Source: Fidelibacterota bacterium (lineage in GTDB: Bacteria; Fidelibacterota; UBA8477; JABMPR01). From it: a stretch of 64,000 nt of DNA. Positions 22,269 to 51,440 of this stretch are shown here, one piece after another. The number at the start of each line of letters is the position of its first letter. Position 1 is the first letter of the stretch. The notes under the pieces were generated by a model that had not been told where the DNA came from, searched no databases, and saw only the letters and a list, made by a program, of their open reading frames with translations. Position numbers and translations under genes: made by a program. The DNA lies in contig JABIFX010000253.1 in assembly GCA_018650445.1 (NCBI GenBank), positions 65,136-129,135 of the forward strand, in the 5' to 3' direction.

Positions 22269-23672
22269 CTATCTAATAAGCGGCCACCAAACCAGACCCA
22301 CCAGAGCTAGAGAAATGATTGACATAATCGCCATCTTCCAACCGGCGCGCAGAAAGTCAGGCGCCTTGACCAGACCACTGGAATAAATGATGGTACAAGC
22401 CGGAGCCGCGACAGCAGTGAAATAACCAAAGGCTGAAGATATTACTGAAGCCAGACCCAGGAGGATGGGATCACCACCCAGATTAAGAACAACAGGCCCC
22501 ACTACAGCTACGGTTGCTGAACTGCTCAGTAGATTTGATAAAACCCCACTCAATGCTACGGAGACAACGGCACGCAGTGTATCAATATTGGGGATCAAAA
22601 TCTGAAGAAAATTGACACTGCCCTCTGCCAGCCAGGCGGCTCCACCAGTATTTTTCATCTGGACACCAATGGAAATGGTCGCCCCAAACAATAGAATCAC
22701 TCCCCAGTTAACCCCTCTGCTAAGATCCTTCCATGAAACCAGCCCAAAGGTTAAATAGAGGAAAATGCCCATGAGTGCGATACTCCCTAATCCATAAACC
22801 TCGCTTAATGCAATCCAACCATATAGAACTGCTGCAAACAGAACGAGAGAGAAGCTTTCCTTCCAGGACATCTTACCAGCATGAGCCACTTCTACAGAAA
22901 GTCGTCGAACTGCAGTGTCCAATACCTTCAATTCAGGTGGGAAGGTTTTTAATATGATGAAGCTGGTAATAGGAATCTCAATCAGTACCATGGGATAAAC
23001 CATTTTCATCCATTCGATATAACTCAGGCTGCCGGATCCAAATTCAGCCCAATAATTCATCATAATCACATTGCGCCCACCTCCACTGGGTGTTCCAATG
23101 GAGCCAATGGTTGCCCCATAGGCAATGGAAAAGAGTAAAGCAGCAATAAGTCCTGTGTTTGACTGCCCTCTATTAGAAGTATATCGAATCAGGGTCAGGG
23201 CGACAGGCAGCATCATTGCTGTCACCATATGGGGACCAACAAAGCTTGAAAGAATTGCGGAGATGGCGGTAAAACCAGCCACAATACGCCAGGTTTTATT
23301 GCCGGTAAGACGGATGATCCCCAGAGCGAGGCGTTTATCCAGGCCCTGACTCACGATAGCTACAGCCAACATAAGTGATCCCATGATAAAGAAAACCGCA
23401 TCATTCATAAAATAGCCGCCAACCTCATTGGGTGTGCTGCCCCCGATGATGACCTGCCAGAATATCAACTGTAGGGCAATGGCTGGAAGGGGTATGGGTT
23501 CTTTCAGAATGAGTATGAGGGTCATCAAAATGATGATGAGAATGTGATAACCGTCCTTACCAAGAGATTGTGGATGTGGAACAAAAAAATAAAGGATGGC
23601 TCCAATTACCAATGCAATCAGGAGCCAGCGTTTTTGCTGGATCCAAAATAGCATGTCGGCAGAGATATGCAT
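22269..23672 (-). CDS. anion permease of the ion-transporter superfamily (DASS/SLC13-ArsB-like), paralogue 1
   Basis: 467 aa with many TM segments. Conserved blocks are 'FMNDAVFFIMGSLMLAVAIVSQGLDKRLALGII', 'GSIGTPSGGGRNVIMMNYW' and 'LSSSATVAVVGP'. This is a family-level call by eye only. Confidence 0.6.
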   Translation of the reverse strand: MHISADMLFWIQQKRWLLIALVIGAILYFFVPHPQSLGKDGYHILIIILMTLILILKEPIPLPAIALQLIFWQVIIGGSTPNEVGGYFMNDAVFFIMGSLMLAVAIVSQGLDKRLALGIIRLTGNKTWRIVAGFTAISAILSSFVGPHMVTAMMLPVALTLIRYTSNRGQSNTGLIAALLFSIAYGATIGSIGTPSGGGRNVIMMNYWAEFGSGSLSYIEWMKMVYPMVLIEIPITSFIILKTFPPELKVLDTAVRRLSVEVAHAGKMSWKESFSLVLFAAVLYGWIALSEVYGLGSIALMGIFLYLTFGLVSWKDLSRGVNWGVILLFGATISIGVQMKNTGGAAWLAEGSVNFLQILIPNIDTLRAVVSVALSGVLSNLLSSSATVAVVGPVVLNLGGDPILLGLASVISSAFGYFTAVAAPACTIIYSSGLVKAPDFLRAGWKMAIMSIISLALVGLVWWPLIR

Positions 23673-23685
23673 TGGAGAGGTCTGG

Positions 23686-24606
23686 CTATCGGACGATCAG
23701 AATCGGGACATCAGTTTGTTCTAGGGTCTTGATTGGCTTGCTTCCAAACAGAAATTGCTTCACAGGATTCAAGGTTGAGGCACCCATGATGACGAAGTGA
23801 TTGTCTCCGGCGAACTCAACAAAGGTTCTCACGGGGTCTCCAGTGAGAAAAAATTGCTCAACTTCAATACCTCTGGAATCAAAGTATGCTTTTGCCTTAT
23901 CTGCGGCACCCTGATACCCCGCTCCAAACCGCTTGGTTTTGGAAACAGTAAGCGTTCTTACGGGCCATCCCAATTTCCCCGCAATCAAAGCCCCCCATTC
24001 AATGGACTTGCTTGTAGCCGTTGAATCATCCACCAGGAGTAAGAGTTTATATTTCTTGCGAGGATTAAATTTTTGAAGTACAAAAATGGAGGAGGGTAGA
24101 TACTGGAGAATGGAGTGTGCTAAATGGCGTTTGTTCTGACTCCCACCAATAATGGCAAGATCGTAACCCTCCAGTTGTATTTCCTTCCTCAACTGATCAA
24201 CCAACTCACCCTCCCGAAGGACAAGCTCGATACGGCAGCCTTTATCATCAGGTAAAATGACCCGGACACGACCATCTTCTTCATAGACATGATCCGAATT
24301 GAATTGAATTTTTGCCAACTCTTCATTATCGGAGGATAGTTTTTTTAGCTCCTGCAAAGCCCACTCCAGCACTTCCAGACCAGGATGTATGATATTCCAA
24401 TTATCCAGATTCTGACGGGTCAGATTGACAGAACTACCATGAAATTCACTGGCTCTTTCACCGACATAAACCACACCATGACTGGCATCGAAAACAGAGG
24501 CAATGAGTGCGCCCATCTTCAAAGTGGGCTTAGAATATTCAACACTACTTACCGCAGTGAGAAACTTGAGAGATTTTGGGTCGAATGGAGCTTTCTTCTT
24601 TGTCAT
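23686..24606 (-). CDS. tandem universal stress protein (USP) domain protein
   Basis: The track ORF starts at 24621. I prefer ATG 24606, which overlaps the upstream stop as ATGA. It has two USP-like halves, and the C-terminus 'HFVIMGASTLNPVKQFLFGSKPIKTLEQTDVPILIVR' resembles the USP nucleotide-binding end. Confidence 0.65.
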   Translation of the reverse strand: MTKKKAPFDPKSLKFLTAVSSVEYSKPTLKMGALIASVFDASHGVVYVGERASEFHGSSVNLTRQNLDNWNIIHPGLEVLEWALQELKKLSSDNEELAKIQFNSDHVYEEDGRVRVILPDDKGCRIELVLREGELVDQLRKEIQLEGYDLAIIGGSQNKRHLAHSILQYLPSSIFVLQKFNPRKKYKLLLLVDDSTATSKSIEWGALIAGKLGWPVRTLTVSKTKRFGAGYQGAADKAKAYFDSRGIEVEQFFLTGDPVRTFVEFAGDNHFVIMGASTLNPVKQFLFGSKPIKTLEQTDVPILIVR

Positions 24607-26003
24607 AATAGTGGCCACCATAATAAGGATAATCCAAGCAGGCTAACAAGGGATAAAACACCCATTTTCCAACCGGCTCTGAGAAAGTCTTTTGATTTTA
24701 CCAGCCCGCTGGAATAGATAATGGTACAAGCAGGAGCTGCTACCGCTGTGAAATAACCAAATGCAGAGGCTATTGCAGTGGCGAATCCGATGAGAATTTG
24801 ATCCCCCCCCAGGTCCAGTACAATAGGACCCACAACAGCTACAGTCGCAGAGCTACTTAAAATATTTGACATGACACCGGAGAGAAGCACGGAAACACTT
24901 CCCTGGAGAATTGCAGGACTATCGATAACCTTACCTAGATTGGTTATGATTACATGGGCTATCCATTCAGCAGCACCGGTTTGGTTCATCTGAATACCGA
25001 TTGAAATGGCAGCACCAAAAAGGAGAATGACCCCCCAGTTGGTTTTACGGTTGAGTTCTTGCCATTCAACCAATCCAAATGACAGATACAGGAAAACACC
25101 GAGGAGAGCGATAATCCCCAACCCAAAATCCTCACTGAGAAAGACCCAGCCGAGAAACACCAGGATAAAAAGAATAATTGCCAGCCATTCGCGACCCTTG
25201 ATCCTGCCTGCTCGTGCCACATCGACAACCAGTTTACGTACAGCGCTATCCAGATTGCTCTGTTCCGGTTTAAAGGTCCAGAGTAGAATGAAAACTGTAA
25301 AGGGTATTTGAAACAAGACCATGGGGTAGACATATTTGATCCATTCCAGGTAAGTCACAGATCCAGATCCAAATTCAGCCCAGTAATTCATCATGATAAC
25401 ATTGCGACCACCTCCAGAGGGAGTACCAATGGATCCAATAGTTGCGCCATAAGCAATTGAAAAGAGTAGGGCAGCAGTCAGCCCTGCCACTTTTCTGGGA
25501 TCCTTATGGGCATATCTGACAAGTGTTAGCCCCACCGGCATCATCATAGCGGCGACCGTATGCTCGCCAATAAACGAGGCCAGGATAGCTGAGATCGCAG
25601 TGAATCCTGCAACAATCCGCCAGGTTTTATGCCCTGTTAACGTGATAATCCCCAGGGCCAATCGTTTATCCAGCCCCTGACTCACAATGGCTACTGCCAA
25701 CATGAGCGATCCCATGATAAAGAATACGGCATCATTCATAAACGATGAGGCCACATTATTGGCTGTATCTATCCCCAGGACCACCTGCATAAACAGCATA
25801 AACATAGCTATTGCAGGAAGCGGCAAGGGTTCAGTAACAATGAGGATCAACGCCATTGAGATGATTATAAGAGCATCAAAAGCGGCTGGATTTAGATCAG
25901 GCGGGGGCGTCACGCTATGATGCATGAGCAAGCCGTACACCAGAGCAATCAGCAGCCATTTTTTCTGGCGTATCCAAAACAGGATATCAATATATGAATT
26001 CAC
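24603..26003 (-). CDS. anion permease of the ion-transporter superfamily (DASS/SLC13-ArsB-like), paralogue 2
   Basis: 466 aa, colinear with 22269..23672, with long identical blocks (e.g. 'FMNDAVFFIMGSLMLAVAIVSQGLDKRLALGII', 'LLFSIAYGATIGSIGTPSGGGRNVIMMNYWAEFGSGS', 'AFGYFTAVAAPACTIIYSSGLVK'). Confidence 0.6.
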   Translation of the reverse strand: MNSYIDILFWIRQKKWLLIALVYGLLMHHSVTPPPDLNPAAFDALIIISMALILIVTEPLPLPAIAMFMLFMQVVLGIDTANNVASSFMNDAVFFIMGSLMLAVAIVSQGLDKRLALGIITLTGHKTWRIVAGFTAISAILASFIGEHTVAAMMMPVGLTLVRYAHKDPRKVAGLTAALLFSIAYGATIGSIGTPSGGGRNVIMMNYWAEFGSGSVTYLEWIKYVYPMVLFQIPFTVFILLWTFKPEQSNLDSAVRKLVVDVARAGRIKGREWLAIILFILVFLGWVFLSEDFGLGIIALLGVFLYLSFGLVEWQELNRKTNWGVILLFGAAISIGIQMNQTGAAEWIAHVIITNLGKVIDSPAILQGSVSVLLSGVMSNILSSSATVAVVGPIVLDLGGDQILIGFATAIASAFGYFTAVAAPACTIIYSSGLVKSKDFLRAGWKMGVLSLVSLLGLSLLWWPLL

Positions 26004-26099: not shown

Positions 26100-28958
26100 T
26101 CAACCCTTTTTCTTTTCGAGATAAAAGAGCTCTTTGCTGGGGGCCAGTGGACGCGCCATCCACAATGGTCTTCTTAAACCATCCGGATGTGTTTCACGTT
26201 CTTTCGCCCATCCGTTCCATTTTTTGAAGTGAGCAAATGACTTCTCAGTATCTACAAAGACATCCCCATATTTCTCACCCTCTTTTGGTTTGGAAATAGC
26301 CACCTTCTGGAGCCAACAATGGGCACCGGATACTGGGTCAGGTTGTACAGCATGAGTGATGTTCTGATGAACACCTCCATCCCGCCACCATACCCTCTGA
26401 GTATCAGGATCGCTGGTTTTCCACGGTTCCACACCTCTAGTGGTTTCCATGCGCCACTTGCCTTCACCTTCATTGCTGATGTTTACCGTATTGGTCATAA
26501 ACTTATTGCCTTGATCCTGTTTACGGCGCCAGCGTCCAATGTGGTGTGAACACGCCACAACACTGGGCTTGATAGCCTCAGTGACCCAGACCTTATCCAC
26601 AAACCAGCCAATCTCTGTTTCGATTTTCAGAAGCTCGCCTGTTTTCACACCCAGCTTGTCAGCATCCAGCGTGTTGATCCAGATGGGATTCCTGTGGGCG
26701 ATTTCTGTCAACCATTTTGCATTGGCGGAACGAGAATGGATATGGGTTGGTAATCTGAAATTTGGTAAAAGCACACATTCGTGACGGCTTTCATCCATAT
26801 GATCCCGATGGACATGGGATTTGATATAACCAGGAATAGCTTGATCAGGATAACCAAAATCAGCTGTAGTTTGAGAATAGAATTCCTGCTTCTTTGAAGG
26901 TGTGGGGAACCCACTGTATTTGACGCCCTTCTCTTCTACTCCAACGATCTCGCCATCCTTGAAAACACTACCATTATCATTGACGGTCGTATTCGCACTG
27001 GCTGCGGCTGACATTTCAGTCTTATTTTTCTCATATAAACTGGGCACCACGTTAAAGGCACCATACTTGCGCATATAATCGAGTGCTGTGAGACCTTCCT
27101 TGGCGGCAGTTTCCTTAAGACCATCAGTGTGCTCAAAGATGTATTGGTAGTATTCATCGATAGTTATTTTTTCACCATCACGATAGGGACTTATGAAGTG
27201 TTTGCGAATCCCCAGGTCATCATCCTTATCAATCCGCCAGGATAATTCAATCCAGAATTCATCTTCTTCCCAAACTTCACCGGGATTCACTTCATAGGTA
27301 AATTTGACTTCCTTGCCATCACGGCGTGCTTTTTCTCTAAGCACGGGTTGACGGAAGGCGATCCACATTCCTGAATGGGTTTCATATGAATTGATATCAT
27401 GACGCTCAGGTCCATGACCCATGGGAAGGACATAATCGGCAAAGAAGGCCGTTTCATTCCAGGTGGGTGTAAGCGCAATGTGGCAGCCTACAGAGTCATG
27501 GTTGCTCAGCATCTCAATCCATGAAAAACCATCGGGATAGGTCCATACCGGATTAAAAACCCGGGTGAAGTAGACATCCATTGATCCACGACCATCTTTG
27601 ATCAGATGGGGTAAAATCTGACTCATTTCAAAATGATTCAGGGTGTATTCCTTTGGAAAATGGAGTTCGTTCCAAACCGGAGGTCCTGGGGGTACATCAA
27701 AGAATTCGGGGTGAAATTTATTCCACGCACTGGGTGAGGTTCCACCTGGGGTCCCCACCGAACCGGTCAAGACATTCAAGAAATGCAGTGTTCGAGCGAC
27801 TTGCCAGCCACCGAGATTACCAATTGAAGCACCTCGCCAAACATGGGTTGAAAGCTGGGACCCGGCATCAGCTATAACATGAGCTACTTCGATAATCTGC
27901 TCTGCTTCAATACCTGCTTCCTGTGCGGCATATTCCGGTGTGAATTCAGCATAAGCTTCAATAGTTTTTTCGATAAAGTTTTCAAAGGTCACTTCAGAAT
28001 CGGGATGTTCAGCTTTGAGATATTCATCCCAATTGACCCAGGTTTCAATATACTCTCTGTCGTAAAGACCTTCTTCAAGAATGATCTTTGCTATTGCTAG
28101 AAATACTGCGGCTTCAGAACCGGGATAGGTTGGCATCCAATAGTCAGCGTGGGAGGCGGTATTTGAGAGACGGGGGTCCATAACAATAAGTTTGGCACCC
28201 TTCATCTTGCCTTCCATAATGCGCTGAGCATGGGGATTAAAATAATGACCGGTTTCCAGATGAGAGCTGGCCAGGAGAATCACCTTGGCATTGGTATGAT
28301 CTGGTGAAGGTCGATCATATTTATGCCACATGGCATATCCGGCGCGGGCTCCAGCTGAACAAATATTGGTATGGGAGTTGTGGCCATCCACACCCCAGGC
28401 TTTTAGCACACGTTCCATGTAGCCCTCATGACCAGGACGACCGACGTGATAGACCACTTTGTCACGGCGATTAGCTCTCAATGATTTTTGGATTTTTGCC
28501 CCAATTTCATCCAGAGCCTGATCCCAGGTAATCTGTTCCCAGTCTCCAGCACCACGCTCTCCCACTCGCTTGAGGGGATATAGAATCCGCTCGGTGTCTT
28601 TGACCTGATTAATGGTGGCTGGACCTTTGGCGCAATTTCTTCCACGTGAGCCTGGATGATGAGGATTTCCTTCAAATTTGCGGATTTTATCATCGTCTTT
28701 GTCAATATACGCCAGTAAGCCACAAGCGGATTCACAGTTAAAGCAGGTTGTGGGTACGATGCTATAGCGACGTTCCTTTTTCACCGGCCAGGCTTGGGGG
28801 TCCAGCTCCACAAAATTATCCCACTCTTCTGGCTTAGGATATTTATAGAGGGGACGCGGTCCCTCCAGGGCATACGCTTCAGAAGCATCTTCATGATGCG
28901 AAATTTTCGGGATGACACCAATACCTTCAGCAAGCTTTTCTATAAATGATCGTTTCAT
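26100..28958 (-). CDS. Mo/W-bis-PGD (DMSO reductase family) catalytic subunit without canonical Tat signal; SoeA-like candidate sulfite dehydrogenase
   Basis: 952 aa. The N-terminal FeS motif 'CFNCESACGLL...GRNCAKG' is preceded by a ~70-aa extension. The N-terminus 'MKRSFIEKLAEGIGVIP' has KR rather than RR and no hydrophobic h-region. The family call is firm. The SoeA assignment rests on context and remembered similarity. Confidence 0.75.
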   Translation of the reverse strand: MKRSFIEKLAEGIGVIPKISHHEDASEAYALEGPRPLYKYPKPEEWDNFVELDPQAWPVKKERRYSIVPTTCFNCESACGLLAYIDKDDDKIRKFEGNPHHPGSRGRNCAKGPATINQVKDTERILYPLKRVGERGAGDWEQITWDQALDEIGAKIQKSLRANRRDKVVYHVGRPGHEGYMERVLKAWGVDGHNSHTNICSAGARAGYAMWHKYDRPSPDHTNAKVILLASSHLETGHYFNPHAQRIMEGKMKGAKLIVMDPRLSNTASHADYWMPTYPGSEAAVFLAIAKIILEEGLYDREYIETWVNWDEYLKAEHPDSEVTFENFIEKTIEAYAEFTPEYAAQEAGIEAEQIIEVAHVIADAGSQLSTHVWRGASIGNLGGWQVARTLHFLNVLTGSVGTPGGTSPSAWNKFHPEFFDVPPGPPVWNELHFPKEYTLNHFEMSQILPHLIKDGRGSMDVYFTRVFNPVWTYPDGFSWIEMLSNHDSVGCHIALTPTWNETAFFADYVLPMGHGPERHDINSYETHSGMWIAFRQPVLREKARRDGKEVKFTYEVNPGEVWEEDEFWIELSWRIDKDDDLGIRKHFISPYRDGEKITIDEYYQYIFEHTDGLKETAAKEGLTALDYMRKYGAFNVVPSLYEKNKTEMSAAASANTTVNDNGSVFKDGEIVGVEEKGVKYSGFPTPSKKQEFYSQTTADFGYPDQAIPGYIKSHVHRDHMDESRHECVLLPNFRLPTHIHSRSANAKWLTEIAHRNPIWINTLDADKLGVKTGELLKIETEIGWFVDKVWVTEAIKPSVVACSHHIGRWRRKQDQGNKFMTNTVNISNEGEGKWRMETTRGVEPWKTSDPDTQRVWWRDGGVHQNITHAVQPDPVSGAHCWLQKVAISKPKEGEKYGDVFVDTEKSFAHFKKWNGWAKERETHPDGLRRPLWMARPLAPSKELFYLEKKKG

Positions 28959-28968
28959 ATTTCTATCC

Positions 28969-30579
28969 CTAACTCAGTGGAATCATTTGTGGAACTCTAA
29001 TCCGGACAAACTCGGTAAGGTAAATGCCCAGCGCTGCAAGACCGGCGGCAACAAGAAGCATGAGGTGGCTATCCAGGGTATATAGCATCAGAAGCGGTAC
29101 CAGATTCCCCAAAATGATACCGAGGTAAAAATAGCGGGAATAGTATCCTGATATCATCAGAGTGTGGGCGCGTTTTGTATCGGAGGTCGCATGGGGAGTC
29201 ATAAACTCAAAAGCAATTAAAGCCAGGTTCAACACAACGGCACCTTTAAGAATGGTACTGATAAATGCTATGCCAGATGTATCCAGAACCATCCACGCTG
29301 CAGAGCCTGCTATGATAGCATGAACTAACATGTGTATGGGAGCAAGGTGACTTCCCCAGAGATCTCGACCCTTAGCCTGAGCCAATAAAAAGGCAGTGTA
29401 AATAGCACCTAATACTGCGACTGGCACTGTGATATTGATTAATACCTGTCTGAACCCCAGTTGGAAGTAATTATCTGCCAGGAGGGCTGATATTACACCA
29501 CCGAGGATGGTGATGATATAACCACCGCGGACCAGCCATGATGACCAATTTGGTCGTAGCAATACATATAGGAAACGATCTGGCCGATCCAGGTCTTTTA
29601 CCAGGAGTCCACCCGTCAAACCCATAAAAACAAGGGCGGTTATGAAGGCATTAAATTCTGCCGCCACATTAACACCGACTCCAAACCAGGATAAAAGTGC
29701 CAGAACCAGCATCAAACCAGTTGCTACTGATTTGGTCCAGATATAGGCAGGCACTTCCCAACCCCAGAGTACACCCTTGGAGGGAGAATCATATACGCGT
29801 CTGGTAGTATCTTCCTTTTGGGTTTTCAATTCTTCAAGAACATTGTCAATCGCCCGTTGATCAGGTTGGGTTCCACCTTTTGCGTGGGTCTCCAGGGCCA
29901 TTTGGACCAACAGTTTGGCCTGGTCTGTTTCCTGCGTCGCATCGGCAGCTGCAGGTGCGTGATGCCCCACCCCAGCGGCTTGCTCACTCCACAGATAATC
30001 ATCCCGACGATCCGCCTGGGTGGGGATCAACATATCAGAATCACCTTCGATATAGTATAGATTGGGAGTGGTTCCTTTTTCAGGTTTTCTGGTGACCACA
30101 TGCTCCATAGCCACAAAGGAAGCAATTTTTGAATGGGCATCATCCAGATCACCTGAAATGATAGCCTCAGTGGGACAAATCACCACACAGGCAGGTTCGT
30201 AACCGGTGTCAATCCGGTGTGCACAATAATTACATTTGGCTGCTGTGTTGGTGTCAGGATCAATATAGAGCGCATCATATGGACAAGCCTGCATACACGA
30301 TTTACAGCCAATACAACGATCATTATCAAAATCGACAATACCATCCATGCGGGTATGCAAGGCTGAGGTAGGACAAATTGTAGTACAAGGTGCATCTTCA
30401 CAATGATTGCAACGGTGTACGGAAAAGGAGCGGCTTGCATCGGGGAAGACACCCTTTTCAATGTACTTTACATGGGTCCGGTTGACACCGATAGCCACAT
30501 CGTGTTCAGACTTACATGCAACGGTACAAGCGTGACAGCCGATACATTTTCGATTATCTATGACAAATCCGTAATTCAT
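28969..30579 (-). CDS. fusion of 4x[4Fe-4S] ferredoxin subunit (DmsB/PsrB/SoeB-type) and 8-TM NrfD/PsrC/SoeC-type quinone-interacting membrane subunit
   Basis: 536 aa as one uninterrupted ORF. Cys clusters are 'CIGCHACTVAC', 'CNHCEDAPCTTIC', 'CIGCKSCMQAC' and 'CNYCAHRIDTGYEPACVVIC'. A polar linker ('HAPAAADATQETDQAKLL...') is followed by 8 hydrophobic helices. No signal peptide. Confidence 0.8.
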   Translation of the reverse strand: MNYGFVIDNRKCIGCHACTVACKSEHDVAIGVNRTHVKYIEKGVFPDASRSFSVHRCNHCEDAPCTTICPTSALHTRMDGIVDFDNDRCIGCKSCMQACPYDALYIDPDTNTAAKCNYCAHRIDTGYEPACVVICPTEAIISGDLDDAHSKIASFVAMEHVVTRKPEKGTTPNLYYIEGDSDMLIPTQADRRDDYLWSEQAAGVGHHAPAAADATQETDQAKLLVQMALETHAKGGTQPDQRAIDNVLEELKTQKEDTTRRVYDSPSKGVLWGWEVPAYIWTKSVATGLMLVLALLSWFGVGVNVAAEFNAFITALVFMGLTGGLLVKDLDRPDRFLYVLLRPNWSSWLVRGGYIITILGGVISALLADNYFQLGFRQVLINITVPVAVLGAIYTAFLLAQAKGRDLWGSHLAPIHMLVHAIIAGSAAWMVLDTSGIAFISTILKGAVVLNLALIAFEFMTPHATSDTKRAHTLMISGYYSRYFYLGIILGNLVPLLMLYTLDSHLMLLVAAGLAALGIYLTEFVRIRVPQMIPLS

Positions 30580-30610: not shown

Positions 30611-31723
30611 TTATACAAGAATCATTTCTTCATTGATCAGAGTGAAAGCAGAAACACCGACACGATTGTGGATTTCTGTTAAATGCAAAACCCCATTTTC
30701 ATAATCCACGAGACGATTAATCAGGTAAAATAGATACATACTCGTGAGCCAGTTAGTGAACTCCTGTTTTGAGCCGAGATGCTTCTTCATATTGACCATA
30801 ACCCAGGAAAAGTGCTGCCAGACATCCAGACAAGAATCACATGAACGATCAATCCCCGTACAACACCGACGGGTTGTTTTCAAGTCCGCATTATAGGCAC
30901 GAAAGTGGGGGCTATATGGGTTTCCATTGGTTAGTCGAGCTGCATTGACAGGATTGTTTTCACTGATGGTGGTACAGACATTATAGCCCCATTCCTGATC
31001 ATACAAGCGTCCTGTGGAAATGACCTCGCTGAGGTAGGTGGAGAGATAGATTGAGTCGGGGTATTTGATGATAACTTTACTGATTTCAGCCCTGACTTCT
31101 TTAAAGCCTTTTCGGTGGTCTACGGATCCACCCAGATTGGTCAAATCACTATAAAAATTAAACAAAACTCGATTTCCATTCGCCACACATTGAGCCACAA
31201 CATCACTAATTTCATGGGCATTACCCGGCGTAACTGTGTAATACCAGAAGGCTCGAGAATCATTCGCATAGTTTTTTAAAGCGATCGCAAAAATGTCTCT
31301 TTTCCCAGCCGTCCTCATCTCTGCATCCGTGCCATGGTTCCCCCAAACCGAAACACCTATGGGCATTCGCTCAAGACCTTCCACAGGTATCGGAATAATA
31401 CCATTTGTAGAGACATTCATTTTGAAGTTATCGTAAATCTTTTTCAGTCGAGATAAGCTTAAACTTGGCTCACCACCCACAATGGTCACAAAATTAGTTC
31501 CCCTAACCAATTCCTGCTCAATAAAAGCATCAAATTCGGCTTCATTTGTGGGGGACTGGGTAACATCCATTCCTTCAGAAAAATAATAGCAGCCGTTGCA
31601 GCGGAGATTGCATTCGTGGGTCAAATCAATTGAAATTGATTTCATGGACCCTGCATCTCGTATCTCTTGATACAGGTGCTTCAAGAAGGGATCGGCGAGG
31701 TATGTTTTTAGCGCTTTGGACAT
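30611..31723 (-). CDS. radical SAM protein of unknown specificity with C-terminal Cys-rich region
   Basis: 370 aa with 'THECNLRCNGCYY' (CxxxCxxC), 'VTIVGGEPSLS', and a C-terminal 'TTRRCCTGIDRSCDSCLD'. Confidence 0.7.
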   Translation of the reverse strand: MSKALKTYLADPFLKHLYQEIRDAGSMKSISIDLTHECNLRCNGCYYFSEGMDVTQSPTNEAEFDAFIEQELVRGTNFVTIVGGEPSLSLSRLKKIYDNFKMNVSTNGIIPIPVEGLERMPIGVSVWGNHGTDAEMRTAGKRDIFAIALKNYANDSRAFWYYTVTPGNAHEISDVVAQCVANGNRVLFNFYSDLTNLGGSVDHRKGFKEVRAEISKVIIKYPDSIYLSTYLSEVISTGRLYDQEWGYNVCTTISENNPVNAARLTNGNPYSPHFRAYNADLKTTRRCCTGIDRSCDSCLDVWQHFSWVMVNMKKHLGSKQEFTNWLTSMYLFYLINRLVDYENGVLHLTEIHNRVGVSAFTLINEEMILV

Positions 31724-31788: not shown

Positions 31789-32835
31789 TCAAACCATCCC
31801 GATCAGTTTGAGTTTCCAGTCTTCAAAGCTCTCACCGACCAGATTGGCTTCGTACTTCTGATGGGGTTTCTCGAGTTTTACTGAATGAATTTTGCCAGAT
31901 TCAACCCTGAAGCTGCCTGCTATCTGTTCTCCCTTAATTTCCATTTCATCATAATGGATAAACACATCCCGGGAAATCTTTAATGGTTTACGTGGACCCG
32001 TGTCCTCAATATGATTCAAAAATGAATCTGATCTTAACATGGCTCCGATTTGTCCTGCACGCTCAATTTCAGCCATGGACAAACCACTGGGATTCAAATT
32101 TCGCTGAAAATGCTTTTCAAATTCCTGAATAAGTTGATCAGCAACTTTATCCATGGATATATCGCAACCTAAATTGTCGAGGGTGATCATGTGATCCTGC
32201 ATGGCTTGTTTGCCTAACTCACGGTATGCTTCGTTCGGTGCTGACCACATAGCTGCAGCGGAATCAAAATCGAAATCAAAGAGGATATTTCCGACAACGA
32301 TGCTGGCCTCCCCAATCTGGCCACCGCCAATACCAGCAATTCGTTTTCCATTTATCTCTATCTCATGACTCCCGACCAGTTTTGCCTCAATATCTGGATA
32401 GTGTGAGAGGGTGTTGACTACAGGGGTCAACATTTGCTCATAAACTTTGGTAGAATTGGCAGCCACACGATTCGAATGGAAAATGCATTGATAAAACAGT
32501 TGATCTTTATTAAGAAAAGTTCCCCCGCCTCCAATTTTCCTGCGAATAATAGGAATCTCCAATTTGTCACTAGCTTCGCTGTCAAAGACATGCTCCAGTT
32601 TTTGGTGGTATCCCAAACAAACATACGGGTCAGCCGGCTGAGAAATGATAATGGTATCAGGTGTCTCTGCCGTCATTAGCTCTGCAACCGTATGGTAGGC
32701 TGCCTGGGTCTGCCAACCAGGGATCTGACCCAAATAGAGCAATCGGATTGAGCTTGATTCAGATTCAATATCCTCAGCGTGTTTGAGGGGTTGGTTTATC
32801 GGAATATTGAATCGTGTGACAACAGCTTGAGTCAT
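31789..32835 (-). CDS. lipoate-protein ligase-like protein (BPL_LplA_LipB family), copy 2
   Basis: 348 aa. 'RRKIGGGGTFLNKDQLFY' and 'INGKRIAGIGGGQ' correspond to the RRxxGGGxV and GxKxxG (catalytic Lys) motifs of LplA-type enzymes. Confidence 0.7.
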   Translation of the reverse strand: MTQAVVTRFNIPINQPLKHAEDIESESSSIRLLYLGQIPGWQTQAAYHTVAELMTAETPDTIIISQPADPYVCLGYHQKLEHVFDSEASDKLEIPIIRRKIGGGGTFLNKDQLFYQCIFHSNRVAANSTKVYEQMLTPVVNTLSHYPDIEAKLVGSHEIEINGKRIAGIGGGQIGEASIVVGNILFDFDFDSAAAMWSAPNEAYRELGKQAMQDHMITLDNLGCDISMDKVADQLIQEFEKHFQRNLNPSGLSMAEIERAGQIGAMLRSDSFLNHIEDTGPRKPLKISRDVFIHYDEMEIKGEQIAGSFRVESGKIHSVKLEKPHQKYEANLVGESFEDWKLKLIGMV

Positions 32836-32857
32836 GGTTTTTTCTTTTACCCTCTTA

Positions 32858-33952
32858 TCATTTCGTTGCGCTGGAGAGCTGCATCTGATCTTGAATTACA
32901 TTCAGCTCCATCCCGGTTGGTTTGAAGGGATAGTCACGATATTCTTCCCCTGGCCGATAGGAACCATAAGGACGGTTACAAGCCATTGCCCCATCCCGAT
33001 CAGGACAACCATTGGTCATAAATGGCAATCCCGTATCAATAGATTCCTGCACCATGGCATCTTCTGATTCAATGGCTGAAATATGATCCTGCTCATCAAA
33101 TAGAATGGCCTCGCGTTCCAGGTCTTTTTCCTCTATGAGGTATTTGGCCAGTTGAATTCTGCGGTGCCTTTGGATGGGTTGACGCTCCTGGTGCTGGAGG
33201 GCAGTTCCTTCTTCTGGATTGAATGAGAAGAGATATCCAGCTATTTCCTCACCCTTCAGCTTATAGAACATATCAATCAGATCTCGATCTGTTTCTCCTA
33301 AGCCAACAATCAGGTGGCAATTGACATTCATGGGTCCATAAATCTCCCGGGCCGCTCTCACCATTTCCCAGTGATAATCCCAGTCGTGGGGTCCCCGGGC
33401 TTCTTTGCCGCGGGTTTTAATAAACAATTCTTCAGTAACTGCATCCAGACCATACCCAATGATGTCGATGCCCTCTGCCTTGAGCTGTTTTAAAAAGGGC
33501 ACATCCATGGTGGTGGCATTTACCAATCCGGATAAGGGAACTCCAGGTGCTGCGCTGTGAATCCGCCGGGTAATCTCCAGCATATCATCATTGGCACGAT
33601 GGTCCTGTACTTGTGAAATACAGACACGTCCAACCGTGCTTTCAGCTTCCTTCTCAGCAATTTTTTCAGCGATTAATTCCGTGGAGAAAAGAGGCCAATC
33701 CACCCGAATAAAGCTATTCTCTTCAGCCAGTCCAGGACGCTCTCTCGCCAATCCACAGTAACTACAGTTGGCAAAGCAGCCCTCAGGATAATTTTGAAGT
33801 AGGTTGATGCAACCACAGCCACAGCCATGGATGCGACCCGGCTTTAACCCCAGTTCAATAGCTGCTGCCATACTTATGCGGACATAATCAGGACTGATAT
33901 TCAACAGTTCGGCCTGTTCTTGTGATGATAATTTTAATGCTTCAGCGTTCAT
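32858..33952 (-). CDS. radical SAM protein, candidate LipS-type lipoyl synthase component
   Basis: 364 aa with 'CFANCSYCGLA' (CxxxCxxC) preceded by an extra 'HGCGCGCINL' Cys cluster. It sits between two ligase-like genes. Confidence 0.65.
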   Translation of the reverse strand: MNAEALKLSSQEQAELLNISPDYVRISMAAAIELGLKPGRIHGCGCGCINLLQNYPEGCFANCSYCGLARERPGLAEENSFIRVDWPLFSTELIAEKIAEKEAESTVGRVCISQVQDHRANDDMLEITRRIHSAAPGVPLSGLVNATTMDVPFLKQLKAEGIDIIGYGLDAVTEELFIKTRGKEARGPHDWDYHWEMVRAAREIYGPMNVNCHLIVGLGETDRDLIDMFYKLKGEEIAGYLFSFNPEEGTALQHQERQPIQRHRRIQLAKYLIEEKDLEREAILFDEQDHISAIESEDAMVQESIDTGLPFMTNGCPDRDGAMACNRPYGSYRPGEEYRDYPFKPTGMELNVIQDQMQLSSATK

Positions 33953-34106
33953 AAATATTCTCGACTAATAATTGCTTAAATCTGTATTTTGATCGTTGCG
34001 GTACATGTTGTATTCACGACTCCCACTTTATTAAATATCCTGGTCCCTTCGATACGATTGCATTGCAATCACTCAGGGTCCGGATAATTCCTAACGCCCA
34101 AACTCT

Positions 34107-35096
34107 TCACCACGTCACTCCGCAACACGCGTTAATAAATTTGGACTCCAGACCTTTCTCCTTGGCATAGCTGATTATTCCTTCTGAGGGAAAGGCTATC
34201 CCATTTAAACCGGCGTTAATGGCAAGCTGGTCAATGTCTATTTTTAAGGCTCCTAATGGACGGGCACATCCCAGTAAAATTGGAGACTGAGGAAGAGCCC
34301 GGCGGGCTGTTTCAAAAAAGTCCCCGATTTCATTGATTGATGGAGGCTTAACACCCTCCATTCCTGTTCCGGTTAAGGGGAGTAGAATCACCAGAACCAA
34401 TATTTTTGGTGAGTATTTTTTAATCATCTCCAGAGCAGCCCATTCACCATTCATTTTGCCAAAATAGTGACCTATGACAATATGAGGAATGGCTGGAATC
34501 CCATAACGATCCAGACGTTCTAGAACTTTATCATAATCTGCTGGTGTTGCATTGAGATGATAGACTTCTGAGATGGTTTCCTGGTCCCCAATTATATCCA
34601 GCATAACTCCATCGATATCCACTTCACTCAAAGCTTGACAGGTTGCTTCATCAGGCAAGCCTGGATGCACTCGAATAAGCAGATCAAGTTCACTTCTGAT
34701 GCGTTTCATATCAGCAATATGAGGTAGCAAAGGAACCTGGTTCATAGCATTACTGCCACCAGATATGAGCAAACCTTTGGCACCCTTCTCTTTTAAACTG
34801 ACAGCCATATCAAAAAGAGAACCATCAAAACTGGGTAAATCCAGCATCTTGTCCAGCATTTTGGTGTTACAATGCTCACAATTCAGAGCACAATTACTGC
34901 CAGTCACGCTGATTGATACAAACTCCCTTAACGATCCTGAAAACTCTGAGGTTTTATGTGGTTTTAAACCTGGACCATAAAAAGTTATTTCATTGGGGAA
35001 ATGTTCCTGACGGATATCAAAACATTCAGGGTTGACTAAATTTTTTGAAGTATCTATCACGGGTTGGGGTGGGCTGATAATGGTGAGCTCAGACAT
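34107..35096 (-). CDS. radical SAM protein, candidate LipS-type lipoyl synthase component
   Basis: The track ORF starts at GTG 35102. ATG 35096 ('MSELTIISPP') overlaps the upstream stop by 8 nt. 'SNCALNCEHCN' is the CxxxCxxC motif. Confidence 0.65.
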   Translation of the reverse strand: MSELTIISPPQPVIDTSKNLVNPECFDIRQEHFPNEITFYGPGLKPHKTSEFSGSLREFVSISVTGSNCALNCEHCNTKMLDKMLDLPSFDGSLFDMAVSLKEKGAKGLLISGGSNAMNQVPLLPHIADMKRIRSELDLLIRVHPGLPDEATCQALSEVDIDGVMLDIIGDQETISEVYHLNATPADYDKVLERLDRYGIPAIPHIVIGHYFGKMNGEWAALEMIKKYSPKILVLVILLPLTGTGMEGVKPPSINEIGDFFETARRALPQSPILLGCARPLGALKIDIDQLAINAGLNGIAFPSEGIISYAKEKGLESKFINACCGVTW

Positions 35097-36216
35097 GCAC
35101 ACTTCCCGGGCTTACAAAACATCCATATGGATCAACAGCTACTTTCTTCGCTGATACTTCAGCTCGCTTCAGTGCCATCTCCAGGGCTCGAATTAAGGCT
35201 TCCTGGGGCAGGGTCGCTAAATCATCTGACCAGCGTTTATAAACTTTGTTAATTGTTCCCAGGATAAGTTTGCTCTGGCTGGAGTGCCAGCGTAGTGATT
35301 GCTCAAGATCAGCAATGGCATTCTCAGAAGTAAAGAAGTCGCCTCCGATGAAGGTTGATTTGATCATCTTCCCAGCCAGGACCATCCTGACATCCAATAA
35401 TCCGCCAGCCGTCTTGACCTTGGCCTTACCAGTTGAATCTGGTACATCTGTTGTCTGATAGATCCAGTTTTTATCTAAATATTTTGAATTTTCAAGGTTT
35501 TGGGCTTCAACCAGCTCAGCATCAGAATAGTTTCCCTTTTGAATATCCACCTGAAAAGCTTCCTGATATCCTTCAAGAATTTTTTCCCGAACCTCATCGA
35601 CTGAAAGATTTTCCCCAACTTCTCTTCTCACGGTTGTGGTTCTTTCAGCAACCGTGGAAATTTCCTTGTCTGACAATTTCTCAAAAGGTGTATTAAGTAC
35701 ATTCAACATAAGGGGCACATCCAGATCAACCAACAGGGAAGCATGAAATAGCAAGCCACCAGAAGGGGTTCGGTGCAGTCCCAAACCGGCTATTTTTTTA
35801 CCGGCAATTTCCAGGTCATTTTTACGTCGAAATTCAATAGAACATCCCAGCGAAGATAAACCAGCTACTATTCCCCGGGAAAAGCGGGCCATTTGTTCAC
35901 GCACGCCAGCATATGAATCGTCGGATTTACCAGGAATAGCCAGGGCTACTCCGAGCTGTTCTGATCCCATAATGATAGCTCCACCACCAGTGGGACGTCG
36001 ATTTACTGAGATGCCGTGCTCTAAGCAATAATCCAGGTTAAGTTCACTTTCAATATTTTGGAAGCGACCTACCAGGGCACAGTGTGATTTATAAGTATAA
36101 AGCCTTAAAGTCTGGGGAGATTGCCCGGTACCTACCCGGCTAGCCAACATTTCATCAATAGCCAGTCCTGAAGTTGCTGAGACTTGATTGTCTTCGATAT
36201 AGCGTGAGATGTTCAA
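35089..36216 (-). CDS. lipoate-protein ligase-like protein (BPL_LplA_LipB family), copy 1
   Basis: 375 aa. The TTG start overlaps the LbpA stop (TTGA). Motifs are 'NRRPTGGGAIIMGSEQL' and 'IAGKKIAGLGLH'. Confidence 0.7.
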   Translation of the reverse strand: MNISRYIEDNQVSATSGLAIDEMLASRVGTGQSPQTLRLYTYKSHCALVGRFQNIESELNLDYCLEHGISVNRRPTGGGAIIMGSEQLGVALAIPGKSDDSYAGVREQMARFSRGIVAGLSSLGCSIEFRRKNDLEIAGKKIAGLGLHRTPSGGLLFHASLLVDLDVPLMLNVLNTPFEKLSDKEISTVAERTTTVRREVGENLSVDEVREKILEGYQEAFQVDIQKGNYSDAELVEAQNLENSKYLDKNWIYQTTDVPDSTGKAKVKTAGGLLDVRMVLAGKMIKSTFIGGDFFTSENAIADLEQSLRWHSSQSKLILGTINKVYKRWSDDLATLPQEALIRALEMALKRAEVSAKKVAVDPYGCFVSPGSVHV

Positions 36217-36647
36217 TCAAGCATACCCTGTGTCTCAAAGCGTTCAATTTCCTCATTCCACCAAGCTGTCACTTGGTCACCAGAGATCATGGTGTTGGCT
36301 TCTACAGCCCATTGTGTCGGTTCAATTCTTACTAACCAACCCTCATCATAGGGTTTTTCATTTACCAGCAATGGATTTCTCAATGCGGCTTCGTTTCTCT
36401 CCATAACGATGCCTGAGAGGGGGGCAATAAGTTCGCTGGTCATCTTGGCGGCTTCGATAGACCCCATGGCTTTACCTAATTCAACAGGTGAACCTACAGT
36501 TGGCAACATCAAATAGGCCAATTCTCCCATGGAATCCAAACCCAGTTCATCCATACCAACCAGGAGTTGACCTGAATCATCCTCCTTTATCCAAAGGTGA
36601 TTTGAGTTATAGTAAAACCCCGGCTTAAACTTGAATTGCTGCTTCAT
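36213..36647 (-). CDS. lbpA: GcvH-like lipoate-binding protein (LbpA-type), copy 1
   Basis: The track ORF is 173 aa. I prefer ATG 36647 ('MKQQFKFKPGFYYNSNHLWIKEDD'), because the longer form overlaps the upstream gene by 110 nt. The lipoyl-lysine context is 'GSIEAAKMTSELIAPLSGIV', followed by 'PYDEGWLVRI'. Confidence 0.8.
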   Translation of the reverse strand: MKQQFKFKPGFYYNSNHLWIKEDDSGQLLVGMDELGLDSMGELAYLMLPTVGSPVELGKAMGSIEAAKMTSELIAPLSGIVMERNEAALRNPLLVNEKPYDEGWLVRIEPTQWAVEANTMISGDQVTAWWNEEIERFETQGMLD

Positions 36648-46189: not shown

Positions 46190-46465
46190 CTACTTATTTA
46201 GTGCTTTCAATTCTTCGTAAACTTCCTGCAGGAATTCCGCTTTCGGTAAACCAACAATTCTTTTTTGTTCTACATCATCACGGTAAAAAATCAAACTTGG
46301 GATTGTTTTAATTCCAACCTTTTGAGCATGAGCCAATCCTGCCTTATTTTCCAACTTCACTGTCTCCAGTAATAGGTCATCCACCGACTCAGACAGTTTC
46401 CAGCCTAATTCAACAGCTGGGCCACATCCAGAACAGGCGGGATGAGTGAATATGCGCAGGGTCAT
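46190..46465 (-). CDS. small thioredoxin/glutaredoxin-fold protein with CxxC
   Basis: Only the last 91 codons of track ORF 46190..46750 are taken, because the 5' part overlaps lbpA2 in another frame. The sequence 'MTLRIFTHPACSGCGPAVE...GIKTIPSLIF' has the CxxC plus cis-Pro pattern of the Trx fold. Confidence 0.6.
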   Translation of the reverse strand: MTLRIFTHPACSGCGPAVELGWKLSESVDDLLLETVKLENKAGLAHAQKVGIKTIPSLIFYRDDVEQKRIVGLPKAEFLQEVYEELKALNK

Positions 46466-46493: not shown

Positions 46494-46955
46494 TTAGCCT
46501 TCAAAGCCTTCGCAATGAATGCACTCGCCCATATCCTTTTCAGCCATATAAGCATCAAATCCAACAATGGCATCTGCTCCGTTGACCAAGGCACTTGCCT
46601 CTTCATCGAAATTGCTGGGGTTGATTTTGACAATCCAGCCAGCTTTATAAGGACTCTTATTAAGGAGTGTACCATCACCTGCAACAGCTTCATTGGCCTC
46701 CATAATCTCACCGGCAAAGGGAGTTTTAACGGGGCCAACCCATTTACCACTTTCTACAGTGGCTACACTTTTTCCCAGCTTGACTGAGCGACCCACTTTT
46801 TTAGGACGACAATGGATAATACTTCCAGCCATGCTTTGGGCGATATCAGTCATCCCCAAATCGACGGTTCCATCATCATTCTTGCGTACCCATACGTTAT
46901 ACTCAACGTGGTACAGAAGATCATCAGGTAACATGCAGTTTTTTAATTCAGCCAT
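46494..46955 (-). CDS. lbpA: GcvH-like lipoate-binding protein (LbpA-type), copy 2, with C-terminal CxxC extension
   Basis: 153 aa. The lipoyl-lysine context is 'VATVESGKWVGPVKTPFAGEI', followed by 'PYKAGWIVKI'. There is an extra C-terminal tail 'DMGECIHCEGFEG'. Confidence 0.8.
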   Translation of the reverse strand: MAELKNCMLPDDLLYHVEYNVWVRKNDDGTVDLGMTDIAQSMAGSIIHCRPKKVGRSVKLGKSVATVESGKWVGPVKTPFAGEIMEANEAVAGDGTLLNKSPYKAGWIVKINPSNFDEEASALVNGADAIVGFDAYMAEKDMGECIHCEGFEG

Positions 46956-48761: not shown

Positions 48762-51440
48762 ATGGCCAATAAAACCAAATCTCTGAATAGTTTTCAGACC
48801 CGGTCAAATCTCAACCTTAATGGCAAAAACCACGAATACTTTGCCCTCACAAAACTGAACGCCGATAAAAAACTTAAGCAATTACCCATCGCTCATAAAG
48901 TCCTCTTGGAAAACATGCTGCGCTTTGAGGATGATGTCACAGTTAGCAAAGAAGATGTTAATGCAATTCTTAACTGGGATGCTCAAGCGAAACCAGCACA
49001 TGAAATTCAGCTCCGACCCAGTCGTGTTTTACTCCAGGATTTCACAGGTGTACCTGCAGTAGTAGATTTGGCTGTGATGCGCGATACCATGGCTGATCTG
49101 GGTGGCAACCCTGAAAAAATCAATCCCCTCCAACCAGCAGATCTGGTCATTGATCACTCGGTTCAAGTTGATAAATTCGGCTCGAATTCTGCCTTTGCCG
49201 AAAATGCTTCAATTGAAATGGAACGCAACCGCGAGCGTTATGGTTTTTTACGCTGGGGGCAGGGTGCTTTTAAGAATTTTAATGTGGTTCCACCTGATAC
49301 AGGCATCATTCATCAAATCAACCTGGAATACCTGGCACAGGTTGTCTTTAAAAATGAAACTGATGAGGGCACTCAGATTTATCCTGATTCCCTTGTGGGG
49401 ACCGACTCGCATACCACCATGATCAACGGGCTTGGTGTCATGGGCTGGGGTGTCGGTGGTATTGAAGCTGAAGCCGCCATGCTGGGACAGCCGATCTCCA
49501 TGCTGATCCCCCAGGTTGTAGGTTTTAAACTTAGTGGCAAAATGGCAGAAGGCACCACTGCCACAGATCTCGTCTTGACGGTTGTTGAAATGCTCAGAGC
49601 AGAAGGTGTGGTTGGAAAATTTGTAGAGTTCTATGGTGACGGTATTGCCCACCTCAGTCTGGAAGACCAGGCTACTATCGCCAACATGGCACCTGAATAT
49701 GGCGCAACGATGGGGTACTTCCCTGTGAACGCCGCCACACTTAAGTATCTGCGTTTTAGTGGTAGAGATGATGAACAGGTCGAGTTGGTTGAAGCTTATA
49801 CCAAAGCTCAGGGTATGTATTATGAAGCCGGAGTTGAAGATGCCGTTTATTCTGCCAATCTTGCCCTGGATATGAGCACTGTCCTGCCCTCCATCTCTGG
49901 ACCTAAACGACCCCAGGATCGCATTGAGTTACGACAATCAAAGACAATCTGGGAGCGAGATCTGGAAGTTCTTCGAGGCGAGAGCAAGGGATCTGTTGCT
50001 GTAACAGGTGAAGATTTCGCAATGAAGGACGGTGCTGTCGTGATTGCAGCCATCACTTCATGTACCAACACTTCTAACCCCAGCGTTTTGATCGGTGCGG
50101 GACTGCTTGCCAAAAAAGCCGTTGAACTTGGTCTGAATATCAAACCCTGGGTTAAACCCAGCCTGGGTCCTGGCTCCAAAGTTGTTACTGAATATCTGGA
50201 TGCTGCTGGTCTATCCCCCTATTTGGACAAACTGAAATTCAATCTGGTTGGCTATGGCTGTACTACTTGTATTGGGAATAGTGGCCCATTACCTCCAGCT
50301 ATTGCTACTGCCATCGAGGATGGAGAACTGGTAGCGACCTCTGTCCTTTCTGGTAACCGCAACTTTGAAGGACGTATCAGTCCCCACGTCAAAGCCAATT
50401 ATCTCGCATCACCCCCGCTGGTCGTAGCCTATGCTCTTGCTGGAACCATGGATTTTGACATGTATAATGATGCCCTGGGGCAGGATAAAAATGGGAATGA
50501 TGTTTTCTTGAAAGATATCTGGCCCAGTTCCCGGGAAATTGCAGATGCTGTGGCCCAGGCTGTGAAGCCTGAACAGTTCAAAGCAAAGTATGCTGATGTG
50601 TTCAGTGGCGATGCCACCTGGCAAAACCTGGATGCCCCCAAGGGTAATACTTTTGACTGGGAAGCCAATTCAACTTATATCCGTAAACCTTCATTTTTTG
50701 ATGGCATGAGCCGTGAATTCGGGGAGTTGAGTGATATCCAGGATGCCCGTGTACTGGCCCTTCTGGGTGATTCAGTCACCACGGACCATATTTCGCCAGC
50801 TGGTTCATTTACAGCAGATACTCCGGCAGGAAAATATCTGATCGACAATGGAACTGATGTGAAGGATTTCAACTCCTATGGCAGTCGCCGAGGAAATCAT
50901 GAAGTTATGATGCGCGGGACATTTGCAAATATTCGCCTTCGTAACCTTCTTGCTCCAGATACTGAAGGTGGCTTTACCAAAAAATTACCTGAAGGAAATG
51001 TGACCACGATTTTTGATGGTGCTATGGCCTACAAAGCTGAAGGCACAGCTCTAGTTGTTATTTCTGGGAAGGAATATGGAACAGGCTCCAGTCGTGACTG
51101 GGCAGCAAAGGGTACTTATCTACTGGGTGTCAAAGCCGTTATTGCTGAAAGCTTTGAACGAATTCATAGAAGTAATTTGATTGGTATGGGTGTATTACCA
51201 TTGCAGTTCAAAGATGGAGAGGGCCGGGTGAGCCTTGGATTAACAGGTGAAGAGATTTTTTCTATTGCTGGAATCTCTGAAGGTCTCAAACCAGGTAAAG
51301 AACTGGAAGTCAAGTGTACCAGAACAGATGGGAGCCATTTTTCATTTATGGCAACTACTCGGATTGACACTCCCAACGAGCTGGAATATTATCGTCATGG
51401 TGGTATCCTTCAGTATGTAATGAGGTCGCTGCTGGATTAA
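48762..51440 (+). CDS. acnA: aconitate hydratase A
   Basis: 892 aa with '[16 protein letters not shown]', '[26 protein letters not shown]', '[10 protein letters not shown]', '[12 protein letters not shown]' and '[16 protein letters not shown]'. Confidence 0.95.

Follow-up and report, generated by a model that had tools for sequence, protein, structure and literature searches.

Why does a lipoate assembly gene set in a sulfur-oxidation cluster carry two ligase-like genes? The question is raised by a stretch of 64,000 nt (the window) from contig JABIFX010000253.1 of a Marinimicrobia metagenome-assembled genome (273 contigs, 86.75% complete). An earlier note on this DNA had described an lbpA gene, a 375-aa ligase, two radical SAM genes and a 348-aa ligase-like gene in that order, and the arrangement was borne out, with all five genes on the minus strand:

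36213..36647, minus strand: lbpA_b, first gene of the assembly module (GCV_H 100.3 bits, E=9e-29).
35089..36216, minus strand: sLpl(AB)-type lipoate/octanoate:protein ligase of 375 aa (LplA-B_cat 142.5 bits; TIGR00545 162 bits, below the cut-off of 280).
34107..35102, minus strand: LipS1, radical SAM lipoyl synthase subunit with the motif CALNCEHC (NCBIfam NF053742 240 bits, cut-off 230).
32858..33952, minus strand: probable LipS2, radical SAM lipoyl synthase subunit with the motif CFANCSYC (NF053743 196.9 bits, cut-off 270).
31789..32835, minus strand: X ("Lig2"), an LplA-fold protein of 348 aa and of the Glu/Arg (E/R) type (LplA-B_cat, PF21948, 100.7 bits).

The sLpl(AB)-LipS1/LipS2(-LipT) route is the lipoate assembly pathway of sulfur oxidizers with an sHdr (sulfur-oxidizing heterodisulfide reductase-like) system (Cao et al. 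2018; Tanabe et al. 2023, PMC10332631). The locus is this known pathway within a known type II sHdr cluster, in the form of a distinct LipT-less module variant, lbpA_b-slpl(AB)-lipS1-lipS2-X. Judged from its sequence, X falls in a conserved clade whose LplA-fold members descend from Lpl(AB)-type ligases, and is not a redundant ligase.

The 375-aa protein has the features of a complete ligase. It carries an N-D pair (residues 133-134), the catalytic Lys141 as the second lysine of G-K-K-I-A-G, and a complete C-terminal domain that includes the GDF motif. The catalytic Lys is present in 35/35 sLpl(AB) orthologues, and among the references used the protein was the best match for the ligases of lipS1-slpl(AB)-lipT-lipS2 clusters. 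For these and the following comparisons, open reading frames (ORFs) in the related loci come from a simple ORF finder, and each was classed by its best phmmer match to the window's own proteins. The score of LipS2 lies under the family cut-off, yet the match covers the full length of the model, the next family reaches just 42.9 bits, and the role of the protein as LipS2-type partner is consistent across 45 related loci. The extra "GCGCGC" cluster reported for LipS2 is real as far as C46-x-C48 is concerned, a pair upstream of the radical SAM motif that is kept in 96-98% of the LipS2 proteins of this module type (C46 in 96%, C48 in 98%), but C44 is found in only 51% of the homologues. C46-x-C48 is lost or halved in two LipS2 proteins from clusters without an E/R gene (L083 and L084).

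The two ligase-like proteins share 23% identity, in agreement with their description as highly diverged, and the RRxxGGG motif recorded for both is indeed present in both. The claim that both keep the catalytic Lys is contradicted by X. Its motif reads G-K-R-I-A-G, and R165 stands at the position of K133 in Escherichia coli LplA and K145 in Thermoplasma acidophilum LplA; the preceding K164 does not align with the catalytic residue. phmmer searches against solved structures aligned the K-R of X to the K-K of 1vqz and 6jom, a 22-sequence profile placed R165 on K145 of the T. acidophilum protein, and a MAFFT alignment that included E. coli LplA (L088) placed it on K133. In the family alignment K164 is variable (K/R/Q/L/V) and R165 invariant. 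The altered residues are encoded in a short segment of the X gene:

32341..32364, minus strand: hairpin with the altered catalytic pair, E158 (GAG, 32362..32364) and R165 (CGA, 32341..32343).

CGA is two base changes away from a Lys codon, and R165 is therefore not a single-base error. E158 replaces Asp122 (E. coli numbering), the partner of the catalytic Lys, so that H157-E158 occupies the place of the Asn121-Asp122 pair; X also has N109 for E. coli D80. N121, D122 and K133 are the residues that were mutated together to obtain a catalytically dead E. coli LplA (PMC12674116). Four positions are clade-specific, with 90% or more conservation in the Arg clade and a residue unlike the conserved ones of both Lys-type clades, namely T106 (E. 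coli V77), E158 (D122), R165 (K133) and G171 (Y139). The Glu158-type residue is found in 100% of the E/R clade and Asp in 100% of both Lys-type clades, and Arg takes the catalytic Lys position in 98% of the E/R clade. Among the 150 best representative clusters, 36 had Glu plus Arg, 104 had Asp plus Lys, and only 6 were mixed. As read from these alignments, the Arg/Glu change is not decay but a concerted, conserved rebuilding of the catalytic centre.

The LplA fold of X is evident from the structure model. The AlphaFold2 model has a pLDDT of 91.4, and its top Foldseek matches were all LplA structures, with bovine LIPT1 also among the matches. The best structural match was between the N-terminal domain and the catalytic domain of T. 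acidophilum LplA (template modelling score 0.88, root-mean-square deviation 2.9 Å). The C-terminal domain is folded but, at about 100 aa, shortened; its GDF motif and final helices are missing, and it gave no Lip_prot_lig_C or LplB match with the Pfam and NCBIfam models. Against the TIGR00545 equivalog the whole protein scores 59.6 bits (cut-off 280). No extra Pfam domain that could serve as a Rosetta-stone fusion was found in the longer members of the E/R family. The only conserved Cys residues of the E/R protein are C73 and C117 (C/F). Both sit on strands of the protein core, well away from where LipB and LipM have their Cys (the LipB alignment is poor); C73 is invariant in the E/R clade, but is common to the Lys-type sister clade as well.

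X is far from unique to the window. A family search among 1.84 billion representative proteins returned 70 clusters at E<1e-30, and a scan of one genome per prokaryote species gave 72 loci, including Marinimicrobia, Chloroflexota, Calditrichota, Bacteroidota, KSB1, SAR324, Myxococcota/"Deltaproteobacteria", Arenicellales, Rokubacteria/Methylomirabilota, Nitrospirota and others. The E/R clade spans about 10 phyla. In a maximum-likelihood tree of 113 ligase-like proteins from the 72 loci, the Arg-type proteins form one clade (Shimodaira-Hasegawa-like approximate likelihood-ratio support 99) in which 61 carry Arg and one, nested among them, is a Lys revertant. The sister group of this clade consists of Lpl(AB)-like ligases of the Lys type with a recognizable LplB domain, most of which adjoin lbpA_a-type genes; the sLpl(AB) clade, where Lys is universal, is separate. 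The revertant (L042:9980-11029, plus strand), from a Chloroflexia genome that also holds a Lys-type sister ligase, carries Glu together with Lys (G-R-K-I-A-G) and seems to have gone back from Arg to Lys. A Neomarinimicrobiota locus has, beside its dsrE genes, a third and strongly degenerate ligase-like ORF (L048:3793-4869, minus strand; RR to AR, GGG to SGP), and its genome has sLpl(AB) and an E/R gene besides. Annotation pipelines name E/R genes "lipoate--protein ligase family protein".

The gene order lbpA_b-slpl(AB)-lipS1-lipS2-X recurs across phyla, including the related Marinimicrobia contig L007. The E/R gene almost invariably comes straight after lipS2. This holds in 43 loci, where the median distance is 12 nt and the two frames overlap in 16 cases. 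LipS1 was found in 4/151 genomes of the window's phylum, and the E/R gene in the same four and on the same contigs. In Arenicellales, the E/R gene is usually detached from the lbpA_b-slpl(AB)-lipS1-lipS2 cluster, yet LipS1 is present in 11/11 genomes with a detached E/R gene and lies in that cluster. Rokubacteria have a cluster lbpA-lipS1-lipS2-X and a Lys-type sLpl(AB) elsewhere in the genome. LipS1 was present alongside the E/R gene in every genome tested, and a Lys-type sLpl(AB) in nearly all of them, whether at the same locus or at another. X is thus found together with a complete ligase and not in its place.

The two LbpA copies listed in the earlier note are both present and share 30% identity. 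The second lies upstream of shdrC1:

46494..46955, minus strand: lbpA_a, a classical LbpA (GCV_H 122.7 bits, E=1e-35).

LbpA_a has the lipoyl-Lys and the cysteines C7 and C148, which correspond to the two hallmark cysteines that define LbpAs (bioRxiv 10.64898/2026.10.01.755906). LbpA_b is a GcvH-like lipoyl carrier that keeps the lipoyl-Lys and has no cysteines and a pI of 4.41. This split into two classes holds over about 40 loci each. The lbpA_a type lies with the shdr genes and keeps the N-terminal Cys in 88% and the C-terminal Cys in 78% of cases; the lbpA_b type heads the assembly operon, has no Cys in 27/39 orthologues and no conserved Cys. The median pI is 4.56 for the lbpA_b type versus 5.32 for the lbpA_a type, and charge is the published determinant of ligase specificity (bioRxiv 10.64898/2026.10.01.755906). 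All ten Arg-type genomes tested contain exactly two LbpA-like genes and one canonical GcvH. In the window's own genome, two weaker GCV_H matches (70.8 and 44 bits) were seen outside the window within ORFs of 247 and 285 aa (contig C47:8759-12000). The idea that LbpA_b is a hub carrier specific to the E/R module was rejected, as Cys-less LbpAs also head LipT-type modules.

The window has no LipT-type flavoprotein, as had been noted, and the same is true of the host genome as far as its single gene of the geranylgeranyl-reductase family is concerned, which is a housekeeping gene. This candidate (C42:8660-9871) was rejected on its unrelated gene context, on its outscoring a context-defined LipT against archaeal lipid reductases, and on having orthologues of 68-94% identity in each of the 22 congeners, all without LipS1. 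LipT was here defined by genomic context and not by a characterized sequence, and one such context-defined LipT was used as query. Across the 72 loci, no geranylgeranyl-reductase-like gene was found within 10 kb of any of the approximately 62 E/R genes; only two such genes occur in these loci, both in clusters with a Lys-type extra ligase. No LipT match at E<=1e-15 was obtained in 17/23 Arg-type genomes, including all 11 Arenicellales tested, and the other six gave paralogues of 65-145 bits located elsewhere, compared with 225 bits for a true cross-phylum LipT pair. Conversely, 80 LipT-centred metagenome loci contained 54 ligase-like genes, all with Asp plus Lys. The exclusion between LipT and the E/R gene is complete in this sample, and the absence of LipT is a general property of the module type. 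One locus (L083) has neither gene. LipT is frequent, and not obligatory, in the published pathway.

The suggestion that EtfAB replaces the electron donor of LipS1/LipS2 found no support. The published type II sHdr is defined in part by EtfAB-EMO (PMC11094781), which accounts for the presence of EtfAB, and lipoate synthesis need not be invoked. Nor is EtfAB a general stand-in for LipT, since Arenicellales pair the LipT-less E/R module with a type I sHdr without Etf/EMO.

In our view X is probably, though by no means certainly, a non-canonical accessory protein that acts after sLpl(AB), either as a lipoyl relay transferase or as an adaptor for LipS2/LipS1. sLpl(AB) would carry out the ATP-dependent attachment of octanoyl or lipoyl groups, and we infer that X retains the acyl-binding pocket and the docking of carrier proteins and has lost canonical adenylation. 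In the preferred version, X would act like LipL/LIPT1 and transfer the lipoyl (octanoyl) cofactor from LbpA_b to the Cys-bearing LbpA_a used by sHdr. Alternatively, X may present the octanoyl or 8-mercapto-octanoyl carrier to LipS2/LipS1, an adaptor role suggested by the tight coupling of lipS2 and X. The relay role is favoured over the adaptor role by analogy with GcvH hubs and LipL/LIPT1. Of the possibilities raised in the earlier note, a split catalytic/accessory pair comes closer to the evidence than two parallel ligases; the doubling is conserved across phyla, but the second protein is not a second canonical ligase. The note had also considered that one protein might lack substrate-binding residues and be a degenerate accessory domain. 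X does have changes at key residues, but its strong conservation shows no degeneration.

Several points weigh against an accessory role. Arg can stabilize phosphoryl and carbonyl transition states, which leaves room for a working ligase, and X retains RRxxGGG and a well-folded, conserved C-terminal domain. The Lys is retained by the known amidotransferases and octanoyltransferases of the superfamily (LipL, LipM, LipB and LIPT1), most of which rely on a Cys as nucleophile; no conserved Cys was found near R165 in the E/R clade, and C73 is shared with the sister clade. Cys-less LbpAs head LipT-type modules that have no E/R gene. The anti-correlation with LipT may reflect a single ancient split of module lineages and not function, because all components of the two module types (sLpl, LipS1 and LipS2 included) are deeply diverged from each other. 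Finally, the host genome is metagenome-assembled and 86.75% complete.

A serious rival, although we consider it unlikely, is that X is a genuine ATP-dependent ligase that works with Arg/Glu in place of Lys/Asp and serves LbpA_a, with sLpl(AB) serving LbpA_b. By counting, one ligase per LbpA, as proposed earlier, is compatible with the data, with two ligase-like genes and two LbpA classes in the 10/10 genomes, but the second gene has neither the invariant Lys nor the Asp. The difference between the LbpA classes in charge and cysteines would suit two ligases of separate specificity, the Lys-type sister clade has its lbpA_a-type neighbours, and the positions of the RRxxGGG, Q112 and N157 type are strictly conserved. 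To our knowledge, the Lys is invariant in all characterized enzymes of the LplA, LipB, LipM, LipL and BirA types, with which the alignments here are consistent, and X has Arg. The accessory domain needed for adenylation by LplA/LplB is shortened in X and not recognized by the domain models, and published systems use a single sLpl(AB) for several LbpAs.

The remaining explanations are less likely than an Arg-dependent ligase specific to LbpA_a. It is quite improbable that, where a module lacks LipT, the E/R protein functionally takes its part by another route, for example in the handling of substrate or intermediate rather than in electron supply. The strict mutual exclusion at the level of the locus, the 17 Arg-type genomes without any LipT-like match and the uniform Asp/Lys of the ligase-like genes in LipT-centred loci all speak for such an exchange. 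An LplA fold without a redox cofactor is, however, unable to deliver electrons, with the divergence of the module types the contrast may be a single phylogenetic event, and L083 does without either gene. Very improbable is an octanoyltransferase of the LipM/LipB kind that depends on octanoyl-acyl carrier protein and frees the pathway from free octanoate. LplAB ligases have given rise to LipM-type enzymes several times through the loss of LplB, and these enzymes occur together with LipS1/S2 (PMC10332631); the accessory domain of X is reduced, but the Cys/Lys dyad of LipB/LipM/LipL is absent from X, with Lys changed to Arg and no conserved Cys in the loops flanking R165, and a complete ligase co-occurs with it. 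That X is a decaying, functionless duplicate is scarcely credible despite its changed catalytic residues and the truly degenerate copy in L048, given 29 invariant columns among 22 sequences 33-77% identical to the window protein, the invariance of the altered residues themselves, a monophyletic clade in about 10 phyla with its operon position kept, and a confident structure model.

The module lies in a sulfur-oxidation island, a single run of minus-strand genes from about 22.3 to 48.5 kb. In order of transcription, it reads:

Island start, minus strand: arsR, two dsrE-type genes, lbpA_a (46494..46955) and a small thioredoxin-like ORF.
Island middle, minus strand: shdrC1, shdrB1, shdrA, shdrH, shdrB3, etfB, etfA and emo.
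Lipoate module, minus strand: lbpA_b, the 375-aa ligase, LipS1, LipS2 and the 348-aa ligase-like gene.
Island end, minus strand: a third radical SAM gene, a gene in which an FeS subunit is joined to a NrfD-type membrane subunit (FeS-NrfD fusion), the gene of a 952-aa molybdoenzyme, and two DASS-family anion permeases with a universal stress protein (USP) gene between them.
30611..31723, minus strand: the third radical SAM protein, with CX3CX2C, a C-terminal Cys cluster and weak Radical_SAM and Fer4_12 matches.

The best solved relative of the third radical SAM protein is the thioether-forming SkfB (E=2.9e-6). Its gene adjoins the E/R gene only in the Marinimicrobia, Calditrichota, Bacteroidota and KSB1 loci and is absent beside it in those of Chloroflexota, SAR324, Arenicellales and Rokubacteria, and its membership in the lipoate module is uncertain. 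The molybdoenzyme and the FeS-NrfD fusion (26100-30579, minus strand) follow the lipoate module in both the Marinimicrobia and the Chloroflexota loci, and in the window the two DASS-type permeases (Na/sulfate symporter family; 22269-26003, minus strand) come next. This set would fit a cytoplasm-facing SoeABC-like sulfite dehydrogenase combined with sulfate export. The small thioredoxin-like ORF between lbpA_a and shdrC1 (approximately 46190-46440, minus strand) has a C-S-G-C motif and a weak Pfam Thioredoxin match (E=1e-3); the 186-aa ORF listed for this gene is over-extended and overlaps lbpA_a. On the related Marinimicrobia contig L007, a thioesterase of the 4HBT fold is located between shdrB3 and etfB (1928-2344, plus strand) and may supply sLpl(AB) with free octanoate.

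For the proteins of the window, the closest homologues carry the name Marinimicrobia. The island (approximately 22269-48533) is flanked by ordinary genes, a penicillin amidase (19779-22136) and an aconitase (48762-51440), and has the look of acquired DNA. It was probably acquired horizontally, because LipS1 and the E/R gene are both absent from 22/22 other species of the genus. Housekeeping LipB and LipA and a 2-oxoacid dehydrogenase E1/E2/E3 set are encoded on another contig of the host genome.

The pathway and the sHdr type are already known; the E/R clade is apparently undescribed, and neither the Arg/Glu clade nor the LipT-less five-gene module was described in the literature searched. We tentatively raise the possibility that the E/R proteins form a functional class of their own, new to lipoate metabolism. 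They would be the first in the BPL/LplA/LipB superfamily to work with Arg/Glu in place of the universal Lys/Asp, either as an LbpA relay or as an obligatory partner of LipS2/LipS1 that gives independence from LipT. If so, sHdr-associated lipoate assembly in Marinimicrobia, SAR324, Arenicellales and Chloroflexota, abundant lineages of marine waters and groundwater, would need a fifth, unrecognized protein. LipS1/LipS2 is a recently established second route to the lipoyl cofactor, and its accessory factors would include LipT, the electron supply and the regeneration of the auxiliary cluster. A second architecture of the pathway would be defined by a conserved fifth protein that goes with LipS1/LipS2 in about 10 phyla to the exclusion of LipT; this protein would also be a candidate for a missing step, such as the hand-off between carriers or the presentation to the radical SAM enzymes. 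For the "invariant" Lys of the biotin/lipoate ligases and their superfamily, the E/R family is a natural experiment as well. The annotation given to the E/R genes would mislead metabolic reconstructions of marine sulfur oxidizers.

Compared with known systems, the sHdr part of the locus is conventional. The window holds exactly the shdrC1B1AHB3-etfAB-emo set of the published type II sHdr, which lists Marinisomatota among its carriers (Tanabe et al. 2024, PMC11094781), and there is no essential difference between the two. Like the published sLpl(AB)-LipS1/LipS2 pathway, the window has an LbpA acceptor, a Lys-type Lpl(AB) ligase, a radical SAM pair of LipS1 and a probable LipS2, and a location with the shdr genes. 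Unlike it, the order is lbpA-slpl(AB)-lipS1-lipS2-X and not lipS1-slpl(AB)-lipT-lipS2, the genome is without LipT, and a fifth gene, the E/R ligase look-alike, is added. LipL of Bacillus subtilis, human LIPT1 and the two-ligase system LipL1/LipL2 of Plasmodium are proteins of the LplA superfamily that do not activate lipoate themselves. Such relays move lipoyl or octanoyl groups from a GcvH-type hub, or a partner-made adenylate, to other acceptors, and LIPT1 was long misannotated as a ligase (PMC13692748). These enzymes keep the conserved Lys, and LipL uses a Cys nucleophile, whereas the E/R clade has Arg plus Glu and no equivalent conserved Cys. The bipartite LplA/LplB ligase of T. acidophilum is a precedent for the division of adenylation and transfer between two proteins; its LplA keeps K145 and needs LplB for adenylation, whereas X has Arg and a fused, shortened B-like domain.

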